This document shows positions 1 to 28,571 of a DNA stretch of 28,571 nt, piece after piece (positions within the stretch are counted from its first letter, which is position 1; each line of letters opens with the position of its first letter). The stretch spans positions 1-28,571 of the IMG/VR virus record IMGVR_UViG_3300045988_100739; one strand, 5' to 3'. Both the position numbers and the translations under genes were made by a program. The notes below the pieces were generated by a model. The model did not search any database, was not told the DNA's origin, and worked only from the letters and a program-made list of their open reading frames with translations. This stretch comes from a virus.

Positions 1-123
1 CACCGGAGACGTGCCGCACATCTTGGCGAGCTGCTTCCGGCTCATGTCGTGCTCGACCGTGTAGCGGCGTCGTCTGCCGCAGAACGGGCACGGCTTCAAC
101 CCGTCAAGTTCCGGCTCATTCAT
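1..123 (-). CDS. N-terminal part of a small Lar-like Zn-ribbon/HTH_XRE fusion protein. The gene wraps across the window ends and continues at 28516..28403; full length 78 aa.
   Basis: ATG at 123..121. Translation is MNEPELDGLKPCPFCGRRRRYTVEHDMSRKQLAKMCGTSPV..., the same LKPCPFCG opening as the neighbouring Lar-like gene, followed by an HTH_XRE-like segment. The terminal 55-nt duplication shows the contig is circular. Confidence 0.5.
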   Translation of the reverse strand, partial: MNEPELDGLKPCPFCGRRRRYTVEHDMSRKQLAKMCGTSPV

Positions 124-6314: not shown

Positions 6315-7187
6315 CTACGGCCTCGGGTTCCACGGGTACTTGGAGCGCGGGAACTGCCGCTCTGTTCCCCCGGCCGCGACCCACTCCTTGGTGAGCCTGT
6401 CGGCCTCGACGTATTCAGGGACCCCATTCTGGACGCACCAGTCGTAGTGGGCGCAACAAGAAGACGGGAACCCTCCCTTGCCCGTGGAGTTCATGTAGTC
6501 CTTGATGAGACGTTCGCGCGGTGACCTCTCCGCCGCACCGACGTATGCCTCCCCGACAGGGGCGGTGCAGGAGGCGTCGGACTTCACCGAGCCGGTCTGC
6601 TGGTCCTTCCTGATCCATTTCGAGATCGTGAGGCGGTAGTTCCTGTACAGCTTGCCGGACTGCTCGCAGTACTCGTCTACCTTGGTGATGTAGTCGCGCC
6701 AGAACCCGGGGAACTGCTCATCGAGTTTCGCCGCGTCATCATCCGACAGAAGCACGTGACCGAACTCGCCGAGCTTGTGCCTTCTATCTCTAGCATTATC
6801 ACTATTCTTATTACTAGTTATATCCCCTATATTATTGGGTGATGTTTCATCACCAGTTACTGGTGATGTTTCATCACCAGTCCGGTGATGTTTCATCACC
6901 AGTGATGTTTTATCACCGGTGATGTTTTTGCACACCCTGTAGGCGCAACCCTGACCCGTCCTGACCTTCTCGACGAGTCCCTTGTCCGTGAGTTTCTGGA
7001 GCACATTGATAGCGTTCCTGCGGGCGATTCCGCACCAGTCCGCGACGTACTGGGTGGAGCCGGTGAACCAGGACTCGCCGTCCTGCGAGAACCCGTAGAT
7101 GAGCGCGTATGCGACGAGTTCCGATCCCTTCAGGCCCAACTCCTCGACCATGAACGGCCTGAGAACGACATACGATTCCGTTTGCAT
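6315..7187 (-). CDS. Replication initiator / replisome organiser (lambda-O-like). It has an N-terminal winged-helix domain, a repeat-encoded linker and a C-terminal domain.
   Basis: The N-terminus ELGLKGSELVAYALIYGFSQDGESWFTGSTQYVADWCGIARRNAINVLQKLTDKGLVEK resembles phage replisome-organiser/DnaD-like DNA-binding domains. The linker TGDETSPVTGDETSP is encoded by DNA iterons. ATG 7187 with AAGGAG 6 nt upstream. Confidence 0.5.
   Translation of the reverse strand: MQTESYVVLRPFMVEELGLKGSELVAYALIYGFSQDGESWFTGSTQYVADWCGIARRNAINVLQKLTDKGLVEKVRTGQGCAYRVCKNITGDKTSLVMKHHRTGDETSPVTGDETSPNNIGDITSNKNSDNARDRRHKLGEFGHVLLSDDDAAKLDEQFPGFWRDYITKVDEYCEQSGKLYRNYRLTISKWIRKDQQTGSVKSDASCTAPVGEAYVGAAERSPRERLIKDYMNSTGKGGFPSSCCAHYDWCVQNGVPEYVEADRLTKEWVAAGGTERQFPRSKYPWNPRP
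6838..6929. repeat. Array of 4-5 palindromic iterons GGTGATGTTTCATCACC (starts 6838, 6862, 6884, 6902, 6918) inside the initiator gene, flanked at 6781-6840 by a strongly AT-rich tract. Putative origin of replication.
   Basis: Seen directly in the sequence. Each unit is a perfect 7-bp inverted repeat (GGTGATG/CATCACC) with a TTT spacer. The adjacent 60-bp AT-rich run is the lowest-GC patch in the genome. Confidence 0.65.
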
Positions 7188-7198
7188 GACCACTCCTT

Positions 7199-10297: not shown

Positions 10298-11503
10298 TTA
10301 TACGGTGCCGTCGAGCTGCTTGCGGTAGATTGTGCGGACGAAGTACCGGATCGCGTCCATGGCGTGGTCGTGCTCCTTGATGACCTTGGTCTCGGCGGTC
10401 GAGGAGTCCCAGACGTACTGCCCGAACTCCTCGACCGCCTCCTTGCACCGCTCGCAGACCTTGAGCCGGTCTAGCTGGATGAGGTTGTCCACGTTCTGGA
10501 TACCGGGCACGACCTCGTTGTCTGCCTGTATGACAGTGAACAGGCCGTCGGCGCGCATCTCCTCGATGAATGACGAGGCCGACGGGTCTACGACGATCGA
10601 CTCGACGTCGTAGCGCGAGATTTTGGCCTTCAGCTCCTTGTAGAGCATGGCGTCGGTCTTGCGGTAGCCCTTCTCGCGCGAGTCGAAGCTGTACTCGTCG
10701 AAGGCCACGACCGCGCCGCCCCTGACCGTCCAGAGAAGCGCAGCGAACGGGTTGGTGATGCCGTAGTCGATGCTCACCCACACCGGCGCGTGCTCGGGAA
10801 TCTCGAACAGCGGAATGTCCGGGATCACGGCCTGCTCGAGCGCGGTCTGGTAGACGAGGCCCTCGGCCTGCGTCCAAAGCCCCCGGATGTAGCGGTCATA
10901 GAAGACGCCCGTGTACTCTCGGCAGAGCTGCTCGACGTAGCTCTTCGGCAGATACGGGTTGTCGAAGATTGTGTAGTGCTGTCGGTAGATGTCGAGGTCC
11001 TTGCGGTCGATGAACTGCTTTAGCCAATGGCGAGGCCCTTCCGGGTTCAAGCCCGCGTGGCACTCCGAATACTCGAATGACAGGCGGGACTTGAGCATCT
11101 CGAAGACCTCCGGGTTGATTCCCGCCGCCTCGTCGATGTAGCAGAACTTCACAGCGGAGCCTTGGAGCTTACGTTTCTGCGTGGCCTTCTCCGCTCCAAG
11201 GCAGTAGCACCGCTGACCGAACAGGTTCACGGTGTTGTCGGGGCCTCCGATCGTCCCGACCACGCCCTCGCCGAACTGCTCGCGCATGGGAACCAGCACG
11301 TTGCGCTCGATGTTTCCGAGAGACACGCCCATTAGGAGGTTGATTCCGTCCAACCCCACACCGTGCAGTATCCGGTCGGGAATCGTGAAGTTGTTCGCCA
11401 GCCACGACTTGCCGGATCGCACCGCGCCCTCGGCGAAGTTCCACCGGTGATGGGCCTCGCGCACGTACTCCTTTTGCTTGTCCGTGAGGCTAAACGACGG
11501 CAC
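10298..11503 (-). CDS. terL: Terminase large subunit (ATPase plus nuclease).
   Basis: Walker A-like AEGAVRSGKSW. C-terminal nuclease motif VIKEHDHAMDAIRYF. Apparent GTG start overlapping the terS end. Confidence 0.85.
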   Translation of the reverse strand: MPSFSLTDKQKEYVREAHHRWNFAEGAVRSGKSWLANNFTIPDRILHGVGLDGINLLMGVSLGNIERNVLVPMREQFGEGVVGTIGGPDNTVNLFGQRCYCLGAEKATQKRKLQGSAVKFCYIDEAAGINPEVFEMLKSRLSFEYSECHAGLNPEGPRHWLKQFIDRKDLDIYRQHYTIFDNPYLPKSYVEQLCREYTGVFYDRYIRGLWTQAEGLVYQTALEQAVIPDIPLFEIPEHAPVWVSIDYGITNPFAALLWTVRGGAVVAFDEYSFDSREKGYRKTDAMLYKELKAKISRYDVESIVVDPSASSFIEEMRADGLFTVIQADNEVVPGIQNVDNLIQLDRLKVCERCKEAVEEFGQYVWDSSTAETKVIKEHDHAMDAIRYFVRTIYRKQLDGTV

Positions 11504-14435: not shown

Positions 14436-15572
14436 CTACGTGTACGACTTGCCGACGTTCTTGTTGAGGCGCTGCATACGGGTTGGCGAGGCCGCCCCGA
14501 TGGTCACGCCGATCGATACGTCGGAGCCACTGTAGCTCTCGTTTACCTCGGTGATGACCTCGGTCCCAGTATAGCCGAGCACGTCGTACGCAACACGGTC
14601 GCCCAGATCCCACTTGGTCCTATAGTCCTCCGCGCTGACGTCGATGCTCATCGTCGGCGTCGAGTTGTAGTTGTACGAGCGCAGGGCCGCCGCCGCGTCG
14701 CAGGCTTCCTGCGTCGTCTCGTTGCCCATGAGGTCGCTGACGTCCTCGTTCCACTCGAAGGCGTAGGTCGTCTTCCATTTGTGGCCCGCGCACTTCGCAC
14801 TGCTCTCGCGTTTGGCCTCAGCGTTGAAACCCTTCAGCAATGACGCCTGAGTGCTCGTGTCGTGCTCGAAGTCCGCCGACAGCACGTTGCCGTTCGCCTC
14901 GGAGAACACGTAGCCCGTGTTGTCGTAGATGGCCTGCGTCTGTGGCATGAGCTGGTACAGTCCGTTCTCGGCCTTGAAGAGTGGCGCGCGAAACAGCCGG
15001 TCGTTCTTCTTGCACAGGTCGTAGATCGCATCCTCCATGACCGTCGGGGAGCCGAACGTGTACCGCGTGCGCCCTCCCCAGTTCTCGTACTCGAGCATTG
15101 TCTTCGTATATCTCGGGAGGCCCGTCATGTACTTGTCGCCCGTGCTGTTCAGCATGGAGCTGAGCACCTTCGTGCCGCTTGGCTGGTCGATATACCATCC
15201 GCCGTAGCTTGAGCCGGTGCCGCGAGTCGTGTTGGTGAAGCCCCAGATGCCCTCGCCGAACACGCCCGAAAGCTCCGTGTACTCGCCGTCGCTTCCCTTG
15301 TGCGTCTTTATCTTGAACACGACACCGATTTCGGGAGGCACGTGAGTGGTCGGAGCCGTCGCGATGCGGTCGGCTATCTCCACGAGGAGCTTGGTAGGCC
15401 ACAACTGTTCGACCAAGCCGGTCGGTATGCGCACCCTGAACGAGCCTGAATCGAACGCCTTACGCTTCCACTCGACGTAGAGGGCGTTGACTGCGACGAA
15501 CCTGGGCGAGATGTCCGTCGCCACCGGCGCGTTGTTGTCCGGTCCCGTCTCCTGATAGATGTTTATCAGCAT
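14436..15572 (-). CDS. Tail tip/Tal-like minor tail protein, about 379 aa.
   Basis: Position after the TMP and the Dit-like pair. No specific motif recognised. Likely ATG at 15572. Confidence 0.35.
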   Translation of the reverse strand: MLINIYQETGPDNNAPVATDISPRFVAVNALYVEWKRKAFDSGSFRVRIPTGLVEQLWPTKLLVEIADRIATAPTTHVPPEIGVVFKIKTHKGSDGEYTELSGVFGEGIWGFTNTTRGTGSSYGGWYIDQPSGTKVLSSMLNSTGDKYMTGLPRYTKTMLEYENWGGRTRYTFGSPTVMEDAIYDLCKKNDRLFRAPLFKAENGLYQLMPQTQAIYDNTGYVFSEANGNVLSADFEHDTSTQASLLKGFNAEAKRESSAKCAGHKWKTTYAFEWNEDVSDLMGNETTQEACDAAAALRSYNYNSTPTMSIDVSAEDYRTKWDLGDRVAYDVLGYTGTEVITEVNESYSGSDVSIGVTIGAASPTRMQRLNKNVGKSYT

Positions 15573-16015
15573 GATATGCCGAACCTTCTCTCCTTGACGC
15601 GCATGTACAGGGTCAGCGGCCCGGATGTGAATACGCTCCATTGCCCGGGTTCCAGATGGTCGGCCGAGAACATGGACAGCTCGATGTCCTGCGGGCGCTC
15701 CCCCCCCTTCAGGAAGTTGAGGTCGAAGTTCGCCTCGTTGAACACATCATCGGGTGCCACGCCGAACGCGAAGTACCTGCCGAACTGCCCCCATGCGAAA
15801 CTCCCCGGAGCCATGTGGCGGAGGTCGGCCAGGTTGATCCCGTAGTTGACCGCGATTGCCGGAAGGTACGAACCGTCCTTCACGAGCTGCACGCTGCCGA
15901 TGACCGCCCCCTGCTGCTGCGATACGACGATCTCGTCCCCGGTGTTCACCGCCACGAAGTCGAACGTAGCCGCCGCAGTCCCGCCCACCTCGAACGTGGC
16001 GGAACCGGACGGCAC
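15566..16015 (-). CDS. C-terminal half of a Dit-like distal tail protein (second ORF of a pair split at an A7 slippery site).
   Basis: Only a GTG is available as a start and there is no proper RBS. It lies in the -1 frame relative to the upstream ORF, and the junction sits on A_AAA_AAA. Confidence 0.45.
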   Translation of the reverse strand: MPSGSATFEVGGTAAATFDFVAVNTGDEIVVSQQQGAVIGSVQLVKDGSYLPAIAVNYGINLADLRHMAPGSFAWGQFGRYFAFGVAPDDVFNEANFDLNFLKGGERPQDIELSMFSADHLEPGQWSVFTSGPLTLYMRVKERRFGISC

Positions 16016-16467
16016 TACGATTTTTTTGCCTCCACCGCCTCGAAGGAGGGGTCGGGGAACGCGAACTCTGCGGTATACACCGGCTCGCTCGTCAGCTTCT
16101 TACGTTCGACCTTGAAGTTCTTCAGCCAGCAGTACTGCCACATCTGCTGACCGAACGCCACCACCGTGCATTTGAGCCTGCCGGCGGCGAGAACCTTCGC
16201 GACGTCACCCGGCTCGCGCTTGACCGGCTCGAACGTGATGGTGCGCGTCTTCATGGGCTTGCGCCGACCGATGTAGTACGAGCCGTCAGAGAACGCATAG
16301 TCCTGCGTGATAAGGTTGTAGTTCTCGCTCATAAAGTCGTCGAGTCCACCGGCCTGAAGGACGTAGCCAGCATCGTCGGCGACCTCGCCCAACGCCTTGA
16401 GGCCGCATATCTGCACGACGCCCCCGTCCGCGTTCTCGAACCTCAGCCCCATATCGTTAAACGCCAT
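16015..16467 (-). CDS. N-terminal half of a Dit-like distal tail protein, 150 aa, ending ...EAVEAKKS.
   Basis: Immediately downstream of the TMP. Its last codons are GCA AAA AAA TCG TAG, carrying an A7 tract at 16021-16027. Confidence 0.5.
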   Translation of the reverse strand: MAFNDMGLRFENADGGVVQICGLKALGEVADDAGYVLQAGGLDDFMSENYNLITQDYAFSDGSYYIGRRKPMKTRTITFEPVKREPGDVAKVLAAGRLKCTVVAFGQQMWQYCWLKNFKVERKKLTSEPVYTAEFAFPDPSFEAVEAKKS

Positions 16468-18550
16468 AGTCTGCCCCCACTCCGAAGGTGTTGTACTCGT
16501 GAACCGTCCTAGCCATGTCCGCAGGGTTGGCTACCGGCTGGTTGAAGTTGATGGTCTGGTTGACGGTCTGACCGCCACCGGCCCCCTGCTGGCTGACGAA
16601 CTGCGGCTGGAAGCTCCTCACGACGTTCGGGGAGAACGACGTCGAAAGCTCGCCGCCGTAGCCCTTGAGGTCGTCGTTGAAGTCTCCGATGCTCTTTTTA
16701 GTGTCCTCGAATCCATCGACGAGCCTCATGTTGAAGCCCTTCATGATGAGCGTACCGGCGGGCTGCAGGAGCTTCAGGTCGTAGCTGAGCGGTCCCTTGT
16801 GGCGCGCGATCCATCCCGCGATACTGCCGACGAACGACGTGACCCTGTTCCAGAAGGAGACGAGGCCGTTGTACAGGCCGATCATGATGTTTCGGCCTGC
16901 GTTGTACAGCAGTCTGCCGCCGTTTCCGATGGCCCTGACGATCTTGCCGGGAATATTCCCGACGAACGACGTGATGCCGCCCTCCTTGGATGCGATGCCG
17001 CTGAGGAACTTGCCGAACGCCTCCGCGCCCGATGCGAGCAGCGACGGGCCGAGCGTGACCAGCTTGCCGAGGATGTCGCCGACGAGTCCGGCCACGCTCA
17101 GGAGAATCTGCGGCAGCGCCTGACCGATTGCTCCGACGAGCTGTAGGAACAGCTCCGCGCCGCGCGACAGCATCTCCGGGCCGTGGTCGATGATGTACTG
17201 GAGCAGCTGCGCGATTCCCTGGCCGAGTGCCGTGAGAATCTGCGGCAGCGCCTGAATCAATCCGGTGACCATGTTCACGAAGAACGTAAGCGCCGTGTTG
17301 AGCAGCTGCGGGCCGTACATGATTATCAGGTTGAAGATGCCGGTGATGATGGTCGGCAGGTTCTGGATGATCATCATACCGAGCTGCCCCAACGCATCGA
17401 GCAGGAACGTGGCGAGGTTTACTATCATCCCGACGATTGCCGGCCCCTGCTCCGTGAGGAACGTGCCGACCGACTGGAAGAACGTCGGCAGGTTCGTCGA
17501 GATCGACTGCAGGACGGACTCGAACAGCTGCGGGATCGACATTCCCGTAGTCTCCTTGATCTTGTCGAAGACCTGCGGGATGGCCTGCTGGATAGCCTGA
17601 CCCACCTTCCCCATGAGGGATGGCAGCGTCGTTACTACCGTAGCCACGATCTGCGCGATTCTCGGCATGACGTTCTCGCCCACCGCCGTGACCGCCGTGA
17701 GCAGGTTCTCCGTGAGAGCGCCCATGTCTTGGTCTGGGTCGGCGAGGCCCTCGAGCCAGTTCTTCCAAGCGGCCTTGGTGGCGTTTACGGAACCCTCGAC
17801 GGTCTTCAGGGCCTCGTTCATCGATGTGCCCGCGATGCCCATATGGTTCTGCATGACGTCGATGGCGTTCACGATGTTGTCGAAGCTCATGCTGTTCGCA
17901 TCGACCGTGATGCCGAGGTCTTTCTGGATGTCCGTCATTGAGGCGGCGTCCTTGATTAGGCGCTGCATCTCCTGTTGGGTGCCGCCGTATCCGAGCCTCA
18001 GGTTGTCCAGCATCGTGTAGTTCTGCTTCGCGAAGCCCTGGTAGGCGTTCTGGATGTCCGTGATGTTCGTGCCGAACGTGTTGGCGTTGTCGGACATGTC
18101 CATGATGGCGCGGTTTGCGTATCCCGCGGCCTTCTGCGTGTCTCCTCCGAGCGAGCCGATGAGCGATGCCGAGAACGACGTGACCTGCTCCATGTACTCG
18201 TTGGACGATATCTGCGCGGTCCGCCATGCGTTCGCCGCACATCCCTGCACCGTCTGCCACGAGTCTCCGAACAGCTTCTGGATGCCGCCGATGTTCTGCT
18301 GGTAGCTCGAGAACTCCTCCAGCGCGCCCTTTGCGATTATGCCCGTGGCTGTCGTGCCCGCAGTCCCGATGGCGGCGAGCGCCTTGGTCGATGCCGAGAC
18401 GATGCCGGAAGCGAAGCCGCCGACCGCGCCTTTAGCCCTCTTCATGGTGGACTCGGCAGAACCAGCCGCCGACTGCGCCGCCTTCGTCGCCTGATTTACG
18501 GCCTTGTCGCCGTTGACCTCTAGGTCTACCTCGATAGTGCCGTCAGCCAT
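16457..18550 (-). CDS. Tail tape measure protein, 697 aa.
   Basis: Large Gly/Ala/Leu-rich protein with repeated amphipathic/hydrophobic segments. AAGGAGGTG RBS. Follows the G/T chaperone pair. Confidence 0.8.
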   Translation of the reverse strand: MADGTIEVDLEVNGDKAVNQATKAAQSAAGSAESTMKRAKGAVGGFASGIVSASTKALAAIGTAGTTATGIIAKGALEEFSSYQQNIGGIQKLFGDSWQTVQGCAANAWRTAQISSNEYMEQVTSFSASLIGSLGGDTQKAAGYANRAIMDMSDNANTFGTNITDIQNAYQGFAKQNYTMLDNLRLGYGGTQQEMQRLIKDAASMTDIQKDLGITVDANSMSFDNIVNAIDVMQNHMGIAGTSMNEALKTVEGSVNATKAAWKNWLEGLADPDQDMGALTENLLTAVTAVGENVMPRIAQIVATVVTTLPSLMGKVGQAIQQAIPQVFDKIKETTGMSIPQLFESVLQSISTNLPTFFQSVGTFLTEQGPAIVGMIVNLATFLLDALGQLGMMIIQNLPTIITGIFNLIIMYGPQLLNTALTFFVNMVTGLIQALPQILTALGQGIAQLLQYIIDHGPEMLSRGAELFLQLVGAIGQALPQILLSVAGLVGDILGKLVTLGPSLLASGAEAFGKFLSGIASKEGGITSFVGNIPGKIVRAIGNGGRLLYNAGRNIMIGLYNGLVSFWNRVTSFVGSIAGWIARHKGPLSYDLKLLQPAGTLIMKGFNMRLVDGFEDTKKSIGDFNDDLKGYGGELSTSFSPNVVRSFQPQFVSQQGAGGGQTVNQTINFNQPVANPADMARTVHEYNTFGVGADYGV

Positions 18551-18563
18551 TCAGTCACCTCCT

Positions 18564-19118
18564 TTACAGGTGGAGACGACCGAACGCCTCCTTCTGGACT
18601 TCGATTGCCCTCGCGTCCTCCGGCGTCCTGAGTGCCGGCAGCGCGTAGGCCCTTTTCATTTTAGACCAGTGCTGATGCTCGGCGTCCTTCTCCCGGCTTG
18701 GCTTGGTGTAGCCACGGTACTGCATGACCTTGCCAAGCGCCGTTCCGTCGGGAAGGTTGTCCAACAAGGCCCTGAACCGCCACCAGTGCATGTGGCAGTC
18801 GGTGAGGTCGATGCCGTAGCACTGCTGGAAAGCGGCCACGATGCGGCCTCCGTCCTCGATGTAGTCGAATACCCTCGGGCCGTTCGATGATAGGCCGTGC
18901 GGCGTCTCCGTCTTGCAGGCCGCGAACTCCGCCGCCGCCTCGACCCACCCATCATCGTCAGGCACGTCGCCGGTGAAGATGTATGACCCGGCCTTGCGCG
19001 CGGTCTGCGCGTCTACCGCCCATCGGATCCATACGCGGAAGTCAGTGTCTATGGGAAAGAAAAGCCCGCCGACCTCTAGGCCAACGGGCAGTCCCTCGTC
19101 TCTGAGGTCAATCATCAT
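18564..19118 (-). CDS. Tail assembly chaperone, T-like (Phage_Gp15 family).
   Basis: MMIDL...PVGLEVGGLFFPIDTDFRVWIRW matches the Gp15 N-terminal motif. Its ATG overlaps the stop of the upstream G-like gene (ATGA), in the -1 frame. Confidence 0.55.
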   Translation of the reverse strand: MMIDLRDEGLPVGLEVGGLFFPIDTDFRVWIRWAVDAQTARKAGSYIFTGDVPDDDGWVEAAAEFAACKTETPHGLSSNGPRVFDYIEDGGRIVAAFQQCYGIDLTDCHMHWWRFRALLDNLPDGTALGKVMQYRGYTKPSREKDAEHQHWSKMKRAYALPALRTPEDARAIEVQKEAFGRLHL

Positions 19119-19471
19119 TTCGCCTTGCCGCCCAGATCGACGACCTTGCCGATTTTGTCGATTGGAACCTTGTTCAGCGTGCGGGCGGTGCTGTTAATCT
19201 GGTCGTCGAAGATTACGGCCTGATACGCTCTGGTCGCGCGGCTGAAGCACAGCGCGAGCGCGGTCACGTCGCAGTCGTCGTAACCTGTGCAGTCGAAGGC
19301 CTTGTGGGCCGAGTCCTCGCCCATGAGCTTCACCATCATGTCGTACTGATTGCGGAACACCTCATCGGGCGCCTCGCCCTGAGCCACCGCGTCAATCTCG
19401 GCACTGAGCGCCGGTGTGAGCTTCGGCAGCGTGTGGACTACGTTCAAGTTGTCGGTGAATGTGATTTTCAT
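19115..19471 (-). CDS. Tail assembly chaperone, G-like, 118 aa.
   Basis: Position between the major tail and the Gp15-like/TMP genes. Confidence 0.45.
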   Translation of the reverse strand: MKITFTDNLNVVHTLPKLTPALSAEIDAVAQGEAPDEVFRNQYDMMVKLMGEDSAHKAFDCTGYDDCDVTALALCFSRATRAYQAVIFDDQINSTARTLNKVPIDKIGKVVDLGGKAK

Positions 19472-19491: not shown

Positions 19492-19529
19492 AAAGGAAAA
19501 GCGGGGCAAGGCTTCAACCCTCACCCCGC
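19492..19529 (-). terminator. Intrinsic terminator downstream of the major tail gene.
   Basis: Minus strand GCGGGGTGAGGGTTGAAGCCTTGCCCCGC (two G-U wobbles) followed by TTTTCCTTT. Confidence 0.5.
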
Positions 19530-19614
19530 ACGGCTCTATTTTACCGCCTTCGCGCCCTTCTTCACCGGAGAATCTTCCGCTTGAGCGGATGCGTCAGCCT
19601 GAGCCGAAGCTGCA

Positions 19615-20124
19615 CTAGCTAGTTTTTTTTGTCACCTTGATGGCATTGGTGCCTAGGCCGGTCACGCTGACGTCAACCGGGTCGCCGTTGAAGTCGAGGT
19701 GGAAGGAAAGCGTGCCGTCCACCGTGTTCAGCGTGTCGATGGTGATGAGCGTCTCGACCCAGACCTGACCCTCGGTCGTCCCGGTACCGGATGCGGGGAC
19801 CTCTGCGACGAGGCACGGGAAGGTGGTCTCTCCGCCGACTGGCATCCTGTGGCGCAGGTCGTTGATGAACTTGTACATCGGGTTGTCCTCGTAGAGGGCG
19901 ATCTCCTGATCCATTCCGGGCTGATAGCCGGTGTGGACGGTGAAATCGTTCTTGTAGCAGATGTAGGACGCAGTGTCGGTCTGCGCGTTGTACTCCATCT
20001 CGAATGTGGTCGAAAGGTCGATGGGGACCCACTTCGCGCCGGTGTCTGTACCGGTGCCCGTCCACGCTCCCGCCGTGTCGATGAGCGGGACGATGAGATT
20101 ACGTGTGATCTTGTTCACTGGCAT
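19615..20124 (-). CDS. Major tail protein, 169 aa.
   Basis: Position (after five small head-tail genes, before G/T/TMP) and size. GAGAGAGG RBS. The gene ends with an A8 tract (19623-19630). Confidence 0.55.
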   Translation of the reverse strand: MPVNKITRNLIVPLIDTAGAWTGTGTDTGAKWVPIDLSTTFEMEYNAQTDTASYICYKNDFTVHTGYQPGMDQEIALYEDNPMYKFINDLRHRMPVGGETTFPCLVAEVPASGTGTTEGQVWVETLITIDTLNTVDGTLSFHLDFNGDPVDVSVTGLGTNAIKVTKKTS

Positions 20125-28406: not shown

Positions 28407-28571
28407 TCGTCCGCCTTCACAACCAGCTCGTTTACATCCATCTTCATGGCGTTCGCCATGTTGGACAGCACGCGCAGCGGCAGTTTGTAATGACCGTTGA
28501 GGTACCTGCTGAACGTCACCGGAGACGTGCCGCACATCTTGGCGAGCTGCTTCCGGCTCATGTCGTGCTCG
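28403..28571 (-). CDS. C-terminal (HTH_XRE) part of the wrapped Lar-like/HTH gene. See feature 1..123; 28517-28571 duplicates 1-55.
   Basis: Translation ...MSRKQLAKMCGTSPVTFSRYLNGHYKLPLRVLSNMANAMKMDVNELVVKADE*. The stop is TGA at 28405..28403. Confidence 0.5.
   Translation of the reverse strand, partial: EHDMSRKQLAKMCGTSPVTFSRYLNGHYKLPLRVLSNMANAMKMDVNELVVKADE
28517..28571. repeat. Exact 55-nt duplicate of positions 1-55: a circular-contig closure overlap. True genome length 28,516 bp.
   Basis: Identical strings at both window ends. An ORF reads through the junction without interruption. Confidence 0.9.

Follow-up and report, generated by a model that had tools for sequence, protein, structure and literature searches.

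A putative programmed −1 frameshift signal at the Dit position of siphoviruses from human-gut Coriobacteriia

The window analysed here is a 28,571-nucleotide (nt) stretch of viral DNA (IMG/VR record IMGVR_UViG_3300045988_100739, positions 1 to 28,571), which corresponds to scaffold_898 of ENA assembly ERZ28659298 (source sample SAMEA3541504); a second assembly (ERZ1745053 NODE_948) is of equal length. Directly downstream of its tape measure protein gene lie two co-directional open reading frames (ORFs), designated ORF A and ORF B, which occupy the position of the distal tail protein (Dit) gene and meet at a perfect A_AAA_AAA slippery heptamer. Judged from the sequence, this arrangement is best read as a programmed −1 ribosomal frameshift, which probably makes both a short form of 150 amino acids (aa) and a long form of 300 aa.

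Results

The junction of ORF A and ORF B

The elements of the junction are as follows.

16015..16467, minus strand: ORF A, the zero-frame short product of 150 aa, with ATG at 16467 and ending ...FEAVEAKKS-stop, in the Dit position.
16021..16027, minus strand: slippery heptamer A_AAA_AAA, read GC[A AAA AAA] in the X_XXY_YYZ register of ORF A.
16015..16017, minus strand: ORF A stop codon TAG, its G shared with the GTG (16015..16013) that opens ORF B in a TAGTG overlap.
15566..16021, minus strand: ORF B, the −1 frame coding region, 151 codons from the post-slip ATC and 149 aa from the GTG at 16015.

On the minus strand the junction reads ...GAG GCA AAA AAA TCG TAG TGC CGT CC..., with the heptamer two codons ahead of the ORF A stop. 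In the −1 frame the same bases read ATC GTA GTG CCG TCC..., encoding IVVPSGSATFEV..., and this frame remains open until a TGA at 15568..15566. The fusion predicted after a tandem −1 slip consists of 149 + 151 = 300 aa (...FEAVEAKK-IVVPSGSATFEV...). A first-pass annotation of the window had proposed the heptamer at the junction, the ending of ORF A, the −1 relation of the two frames and a fusion of about 300 aa; each of these, with all coordinates, was confirmed on the minus strand. Its placement of the junction downstream of the tape measure gene was likewise correct, the tape measure gene (phrog_58) lying directly upstream of ORF A.

Both frames bear the marks of translation. Variable sites at codon positions 1/2/3, counted for each ORF in its own frame, numbered 12/7/68 in ORF A and 20/15/68 in ORF B, a pattern indicating that both are real coding sequences under purifying selection and that their frames are offset by −1. 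The −1 frame was open in every relative whose locus extends to the ORF B stop. Within ORF B, a G8 run (15700..15707, minus strand) creates an in-frame G_GGG_GGG heptamer that encodes Lys-Gly-Gly-Glu; it is probably incidental, since it is not conserved and relatives have Gly-Ser, Gly-Glu or Gly-Ala instead.

Conservation of the A7 run

Junction loci (n = 22, including the window) were compared from IMG/VR, a GTDB genome bin, ENA assemblies and Logan assemblies. Exactly seven adenines followed by TC(G/A) TAG TG were present in 19 of the 22 loci, which came from at least 15 samples and mostly from short-read assemblies. A pattern scan of IMG/VR that allowed 5-10 bases for the run returned A7 only. 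The 90%-identity cluster of ORF A held 246 distinct members, and 13 of the 14 other members that were read ended in ...KKS (12 of 150 aa and one, with a later start, of 145 aa). The cluster of ORF B held 154 members, and 15 of the 15 listed were 149 aa long.

A run of six adenines was found at three loci only (L041-L043, contigs of a single phage strain from Logan assemblies ERR4563710-12). Two of these contigs were identical over 5.5 kb save three one-base deletions, all of them in short homopolymers. Because these contigs differ solely by 1-nt homopolymer deletions, A6 was attributed to platform error; the A6 "variant" (P0134) was dismissed on this ground, and the ERR4563710-12 assemblies, which carry homopolymer errors, are unfit for inferring run-length variation.

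The first-pass annotation had offered, as its other explanation, a homopolymer error splitting one gene. Runs of seven adenines are classic sites of indel error, and the three ERR4563710-12 contigs do read A6. That the split reflects a single Dit gene interrupted by a miscalled homopolymer, or lately inactivated by a deletion, is nevertheless scarcely credible: at least 15 independent samples share the same A7, as do hundreds of distinct variants, A7 with the stop is present in 19 of 22 loci and in essentially all cluster members, and purifying selection acts on both halves. In addition, the A6 contigs stem from data with homopolymer-only differences, the in-frame G8 run within ORF B was read correctly, and the 55-nt terminal repeat of the window is typical of a circular short-read assembly. 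The split into two frames was accordingly taken as genuine, and the suggestion of a sequencing error was refuted.

Codon choice at the heptamer and a predicted 3′ hairpin

Codon usage was computed over 22 genes of this genome, in which AAA accounts for 12% of Lys codons, GCA for 13% of Ala codons and ACA for 10% of Thr codons. With AAA and GCA this rare, the spelling of Ala-Lys-Lys as GCA AAA AAA has p ~0.002. The 28.5 kb contain only two runs of seven or more adenines, each on the coding strand and 2-3 codons ahead of a tail-gene stop, and the only two in-frame A_AAA_AAA heptamers in the 22 genes are located at the same two tail-gene sites. By these measures of sequence the motif looks selected rather than accidental.

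Folding analyses predicted a stem-loop immediately 3′ of the heptamer.

15965..16019, minus strand: predicted RNA hairpin of 22 pairs with a 7-nt loop, 2 one-base bulges and a 2-nt internal loop.

Weak basal pairing sets in 1 nt past the heptamer and the main 18-bp helix at 7 nt, within the distance of about 5-9 nt that is typical of structures stimulating −1 frameshifts. The predicted free energy (ΔG) was -33.7 kcal/mol, corresponding to a z-score (z) of -3.72 against dinucleotide shuffles, and 0 of 200 shuffles were as stable. Among 59-nt folds of the coding strand it ranked third in stability, with 10 of 9505 folding windows (the top 0.1%) reaching -33.7 kcal/mol. When the peptide was held fixed and the codons were redrawn from the codon usage of the phage, 10 of 2000 synonymous recodings (0.5%) folded as stably. 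The hairpin was predicted in 11 of 11 haplotypes, with ΔG from -30.7 to -34.4 kcal/mol and 97.5% of cells paired. Among the substitutions in the stem, pairing is kept by four (three of them by creating a G.U pair) and broken by two, while two others lie in a bulge. A search of Rfam gave no family match.

On the plus strand the fold was about 6 kcal/mol weaker (-27.6 kcal/mol, z -2.1), with the U-run drawn into pairing. Together with the three G.U pairs, this weaker opposite-strand fold argues that the hairpin acts in the mRNA. The plus strand does present a stem, one base and then TTTTTTT, which could be taken for an intrinsic terminator of antisense transcription inside the coding region. Such a role is very improbable, as the fold on that strand is weaker and uses the U-run in pairing, the three G.U pairs turn into A-C mismatches there, the site was not flagged in a terminator scan, and all strong terminators as well as all identified genes are on the minus strand.

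The junction therefore combines the features of a −1 frameshift signal: the heptamer in register, an open and selected −1 frame, a predicted 3′ structure, and conservation of all of these among relatives. In the mechanism that they suggest, most ribosomes would translate ORF A to the TAG and release the 150-aa protein. A fraction, their mRNA entry channel blocked by the stable hairpin 1-7 nt downstream, would stall while two lysyl-tRNAs occupy A_AAA_AAA, and both tRNAs would then re-pair one base back with a perfect match on A7. Translation would proceed as ATC GTA GTG CCG... through ORF B to yield the 300-aa protein, for which the predicted junction peptide is ...FEAVEAK/K-IVVPSGSATFEVGGTAAATFDFVAVNTGDEIVVSQQQGAVIGSVQLVK. 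Bare and C-terminally extended versions of one tail-tip subunit would thus arise at a set ratio, and both may enter the virion.

A second poly-A site at the end of the major tail gene

The other in-frame A_AAA_AAA lies at the 3′ end of the major tail protein gene, where the following features were identified.

19615..20124, minus strand: major tail protein gene, 169 aa, ending ACA AAA AAA ACT AGC TAG.
19623..19630, minus strand: second slippery tract, A8 in the window, its 5′ end in the A_AAA_AAA register.
19536..19622, minus strand: C-terminal extension of the major tail protein, 28 codons, LASAASAQADASAQAEDSPVKKGAKAVK then stop, in the +1 frame in the window.
19501..19529, minus strand: intrinsic-terminator-like hairpin of 11 pairs (8 G-C) followed by the T-run TTTTCCTTTA, directly after the stop of the extension.

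The encoded protein is 49% identical to the major tail protein of Eggerthella lenta phage PMBT5, which was confirmed by mass spectrometry. Among relatives the tract measured A7, A8, A9 or A11, and the extension comprised 22-29 codons, was conserved, ended ...SAQAEDSPVKK..AVK-stop and lacked a usable start codon. The relation of the tract to the extension took every form. In four relatives the extension was fused in frame, through A7 in L044, L050 and L053 (195 aa) and through A11 in L009 (191 aa). In the 13 loci with A9 it would be reached by a −1 shift on A_AAA_AAA / A_AAA_AAC directly before the TAG, and with A8, in the window and one error-prone contig, a +1 or −2 shift would be needed. The relatives with an in-frame fusion prove the extension to be coding, and they indicate that in this clade coding segments are joined through poly-A tracts at tail-gene 3′ ends.

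No 3′ structure was predicted at the major-tail site (z from -1.2 to +0.7), and more distant relatives of 46-52% G+C, including PMBT5, had neither the tract nor the extension. Whereas the post-tape-measure A7 is fixed, the major-tail tract varies in length and looks like a hypervariable slippage or phase-variation site. In the contigs L041-L043, which derive from the homopolymer-error data, the major-tail site reads A8.

Frameshifting weighed against separate initiation and transcriptional slippage

The principal alternative to a programmed frameshift is that two separate proteins are made, with termination at the TAG, re-initiation at the overlapping GTG and no fusion. In such a coupled pair the hairpin would mask the GTG and make translation of ORF B dependent on that of ORF A, and the A-run would serve as an unstructured A-rich leader. 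A candidate ribosome-binding motif is present.

16029..16033, minus strand: GGAGG, Shine-Dalgarno (SD)-like, 1 nt before A7 and 13 nt before the GTG; polymorphic.

Several observations speak for coupling or otherwise tell against frameshifting. The TAGTG overlap and its GTG are conserved in all relatives, and the GTG lies within the 5′ arm of the hairpin, which could mask it and serve coupling. No relative was found with A and B fused in frame, unlike at the major-tail site. Overall sequence variability was low near the junction in a sliding-window analysis but no lower than in two other stretches. The hairpin showed no double changes that would amount to covariation among sequences of >90% identity, a result that is uninformative because the sequences are too similar. 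In phage lambda, two small genes (M and L) follow the tape measure gene. ORF B is entered by gene finders as a gene of its own, of 149 aa, neighbouring tail genes are likewise joined by short overlaps with SD motifs at 11-12 nt (the overlapping genes ORF A and Tal have long spacers of 12 and 11 nt), and reinitiation without an SD is possible. Finally, A_AAA_AAA shifts less readily than A_AAA_AAG in E. coli (PMC5009743).

Coupling leaves unexplained the exact X_XXY_YYZ register, the three rare A-ending codons (p ~0.002) and the occurrence of the same motif at the end of the major tail gene, where there is no restart codon; nor does any other gene start here have a poly-A leader. Of 15 consecutive called genes, 14 begin with ATG and ORF B alone with GTG. 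The first-pass annotation had held that ORF B has only a GTG and no proper ribosome-binding site. The GTG start stands, and a GGAGG is in fact present, though 13 nt away, compared with 4-8 nt for most genes; ORF B thus has the overlapping stop and start but no SD at functional spacing before its restart codon. The SD-like motif is moreover absent in many variants, GCAGG (Glu to Gln) replacing it in L007 and in 6 of 14 ORF A cluster members ('...AVQAKKS'). The lone GTG, the 13-nt spacing and the GCAGG variants weaken the case for a stop/start-coupled pair of separate proteins, which is considered unlikely.

A fusion could also arise by transcriptional slippage, in which RNA polymerase would add one A on A7 and ordinary translation would yield the 300 aa. 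There is precedent, since a poly-A just before a stop has been proven to yield two length variants (tssM, A11; PMC4256274) and slippage occurs at runs of 9 A or T (PMC5009743). The major-tail tract, with its A7, A8, A9 and A11 and its required shifts of +1, −1 and 0, fits a mechanism that both inserts and deletes bases. The A7 of the junction, however, is fixed, and it falls below the ~9 bases for efficient slippage by bacterial RNA polymerase (PMC5009743). The exact ribosomal register would be unnecessary for a slipping polymerase, and a structure on the 3′ side of the run acts as a stimulator of ribosomal shifting. According to Penno et al. 2015, the known stimulators of transcriptional slippage reportedly lie 5′ of the run. 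Such slippage calls for ~9 or more A/T, or for a shorter run with a 5′ hairpin; the junction A7 offers neither, and the major-tail A7-A11 corresponds in part. Transcriptional slippage therefore agrees more readily with the variable major-tail tract than with the fixed A7, for which it is a decidedly unlikely source of the fusion.

The programmed −1 ribosomal frameshift that the first-pass annotation had put forward is thus supported, at the level of sequence, by the heptamer register, the rare codons, the open −1 frame, the conserved predicted hairpin at the right spacing and the parallel site at the major tail gene, with the qualification that a coupled gene pair also fits.

Identity of the product

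ORF A and ORF B lie between the tape measure gene and a Tal-like gene, which is the position of Dit.

16457..18550, minus strand: tape measure protein gene, 697 aa, matching phrog_58 with an expectation value (E) of 1.1e-76 and 12 other tape measure PHROGs; its 3′ end, stop codon included, shares 11 nt with the start of ORF A.
14436..15572, minus strand: Tal-like tail-tip gene, 378 aa, Pfam Sipho_Gp37 (E 2.1e-9) and phrog_538 minor tail protein; its ATG at 15572 overlaps the ORF B stop (ATGCTGA), and the source-assembly gene calls also give 378 aa.

The first-pass annotation had called both ORFs Dit-like. This label is borne out by gene position and by gene position only: neither half nor the fusion matched any Pfam, PHROG or NCBIfam family, and a profile search gave no PDB sequence match. 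An exhaustive HMMER search of 1.84 billion representatives returned near-identical fragments and no distant homologue, and tblastn of the fusion against phage records gave no match. The homologues found were all about 90% or more identical (89% for one full-length match, P0001). A word-indexed protein search missed the fusion although both ORFs were in the collection, in the 246- and 154-member clusters, so its negatives are unreliable.

Three related phage groups have a single ORF after the tape measure gene, of 301, 289 or 817 aa (817 aa in PMBT5). Profile and pairwise comparison with the same-position proteins of the L010 Bifidobacterium prophage family, PMBT5 and L025 yielded nothing significant; weak collinear alignments across the junction, at E 0.28 and 88, are not evidence. 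The 289-aa protein had a sub-threshold match to the SPP1_Dit C-terminal domain, and the lengths of 289 and 301 aa are close to that of A plus B, in circumstantial agreement with the argument that the size is that of a single Dit. AlphaFold2 run without an alignment, as homologues were too similar for a usable one, gave a predicted local distance difference test score (pLDDT) of 32.4 for the fusion and 32.8 for ORF B, both too low for the models to be of use in judging the Dit fold (N-terminal ring domain plus galectin-like domain) that the first-pass annotation had in view.

Organization of the phage genome

The 55 nt at the start of the window (1..55) are identical to the 55 nt at its end (28517..28571). 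Identical 55-nt ends are a signature of circular de Bruijn-graph assembly and indicate a complete circular phage genome of ~28.5 kb. The genome has a G+C content of 61% and encodes terminase, scaffold, capsid, head-tail connectors, major tail protein, two chaperone-position genes, tape measure, ORF A, ORF B, Tal-like protein, holin and endolysin; no tRNA genes were found in it. The phage is a siphovirus of human-gut Coriobacteriia, of a Collinsella-binned clade. One relative was binned with a Collinsella genome, and the nearest cultured relative is PMBT5.

Upstream of the tape measure gene are the two genes in the position of the tail assembly chaperones.

19471..19115, minus strand: chaperone-position gene 1, 118 aa, located before the tape measure gene.
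19118..18564, minus strand: chaperone-position gene 2, 184 aa, Pfam Phage_Gp15.

The pair stands in a −1 relation with an ATGA overlap, the second gene having its own ATG. No in-frame X_XXY_YYZ heptamer was found in the first gene (118 aa), and the canonical G/GT frameshift signal appears to be absent here.

Two further features of the genome were recorded. Its most stable local RNA fold (10381..10439, minus strand; -40.7 kcal/mol) forms a near-perfect 20-bp stem inside the 3′ part of the large terminase gene, just ahead of the portal-position gene. The palindrome GGTGATGTTTCATCACC occurs in four copies, 17-24 nt apart, at 6832..6923 (plus-strand coordinates), in or beside the ORF at 6315..7193 on the minus strand; a repressor or a replication protein may use these copies as operators or iterons.

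Discussion

Comparison with known systems

Frameshift-made C-terminal extensions of virion proteins are known from gene 10A/10B of phages T3/T7 and from the capsid of Lactobacillus phage A2, and likewise from Listeria phages A118, A500 and PSA (capsid, tail-shaft), from gp17.1* of SPP1 and from TpeX of the lactococcal 936 phages; in those phages the direction of the shift, and even the in-frame state, varies between relatives (PMC5009743, PMC6669499). The window resembles these capsid and tail-tube systems in having a slippery site a few codons before the stop of a structural gene, from which short and long forms of one virion protein would follow once a minority of ribosomes reads on in another frame. 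Its major-tail site resembles them further in that the shift direction and in-frame state vary among relatives. Unlike them, the main site of the window is in a post-tape-measure gene, at the Dit position, and the added 151 aa would match the 149-aa core in size. At the major tail protein, by contrast, the extension measures only 22-29 aa and is not an Ig-like domain. In a literature search of limited extent, no frameshift within or following a Dit gene was found described.

With a heptamer in register, a spacer and a predicted stable stem-loop, the signal itself has the textbook anatomy of bacterial −1 frameshifting. Its closest parallel is E. coli dnaX, where a single gene yields two products through a heptamer of two lysine codons and, a few nucleotides on, a stable 3′ hairpin (PMC5009743). 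The heptamer of dnaX is A_AAA_AAG, whereas that of the window ends in A, and the dnaX SD lies ~10 nt upstream, whereas the GGAGG of the window lies 1 nt upstream and is not conserved. A ribosome that has shifted on dnaX terminates immediately, which yields the shorter product; in the window, shifting would yield the longer one. The tail assembly chaperone genes G/GT offer a parallel in gene arrangement, a −1 slip near the 3′ end of a tail gene fusing the next ORF (PMC5009743), and phage Loki has AAAAAAC next to the stop in its G/GT system (PMC5313236). The G/GT site, however, precedes the tape measure gene and gives products that do not form part of the virion, while the site in the window is downstream.

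Citrobacter rodentium tssM1 is similar in that a poly-A immediately precedes the stop of a gene for a phage-tail-like machine and two variants are made (PMC4256274). It has A11, relies on RNA polymerase slippage and lacks a 3′ hairpin, whereas the Dit-position site of the window has A7 and a hairpin. The major-tail site of the window, with A7-A11 and no structure, is the closer analogue of tssM1. As to the protein, the putative product shares with known Dits (SPP1 gp19.1, TP901-1, p2 Dit, T5 pb9 and PMBT5 gp25) its location between tape measure and Tal-like genes; it differs in having no detectable sequence similarity to them, and known Dits are single polypeptides.

Implications for tail-tip biology

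It is proposed tentatively, as a view that falls short of even probability, that this clade tunes its tail surface at two points by poly-A slippage, one a fixed A7 with hairpin and the other a hypervariable A7-A11 tract. The A7 and hairpin would keep bare (150 aa) and extended (300 aa) subunits of the distal tail ring in constant proportion, perhaps solving the six-fold/three-fold symmetry mismatch of the tail tip or displaying a sub-stoichiometric host-binding domain. The major-tail tract would be a heritable switch, or an RNA-level mixer, for a short charged extension of the tail tube. If true, this would be the first programmed frameshifting in a Dit.

If no fusion is made, the junction is an ordinary coupled gene pair with a striking frameshift-like signal. 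The variants of the major-tail site, which span all three frame relations, offer a natural experiment suited to telling ribosomal, transcriptional and mutational slippage apart.

The recoding described here is of a known kind, in an unusual gene of an uncultured but widespread clade of gut phages. If the fusion is real, automated annotation misdescribes the tail tip of widespread human-gut Coriobacteriia phages, entering two unrelated "hypothetical proteins" where one gene has two products. Recoding among phage virion genes would then extend to Dit, the hub that mounts receptor-binding devices, and would give these phages a simple genetic means of setting the copy number of a peripheral domain.

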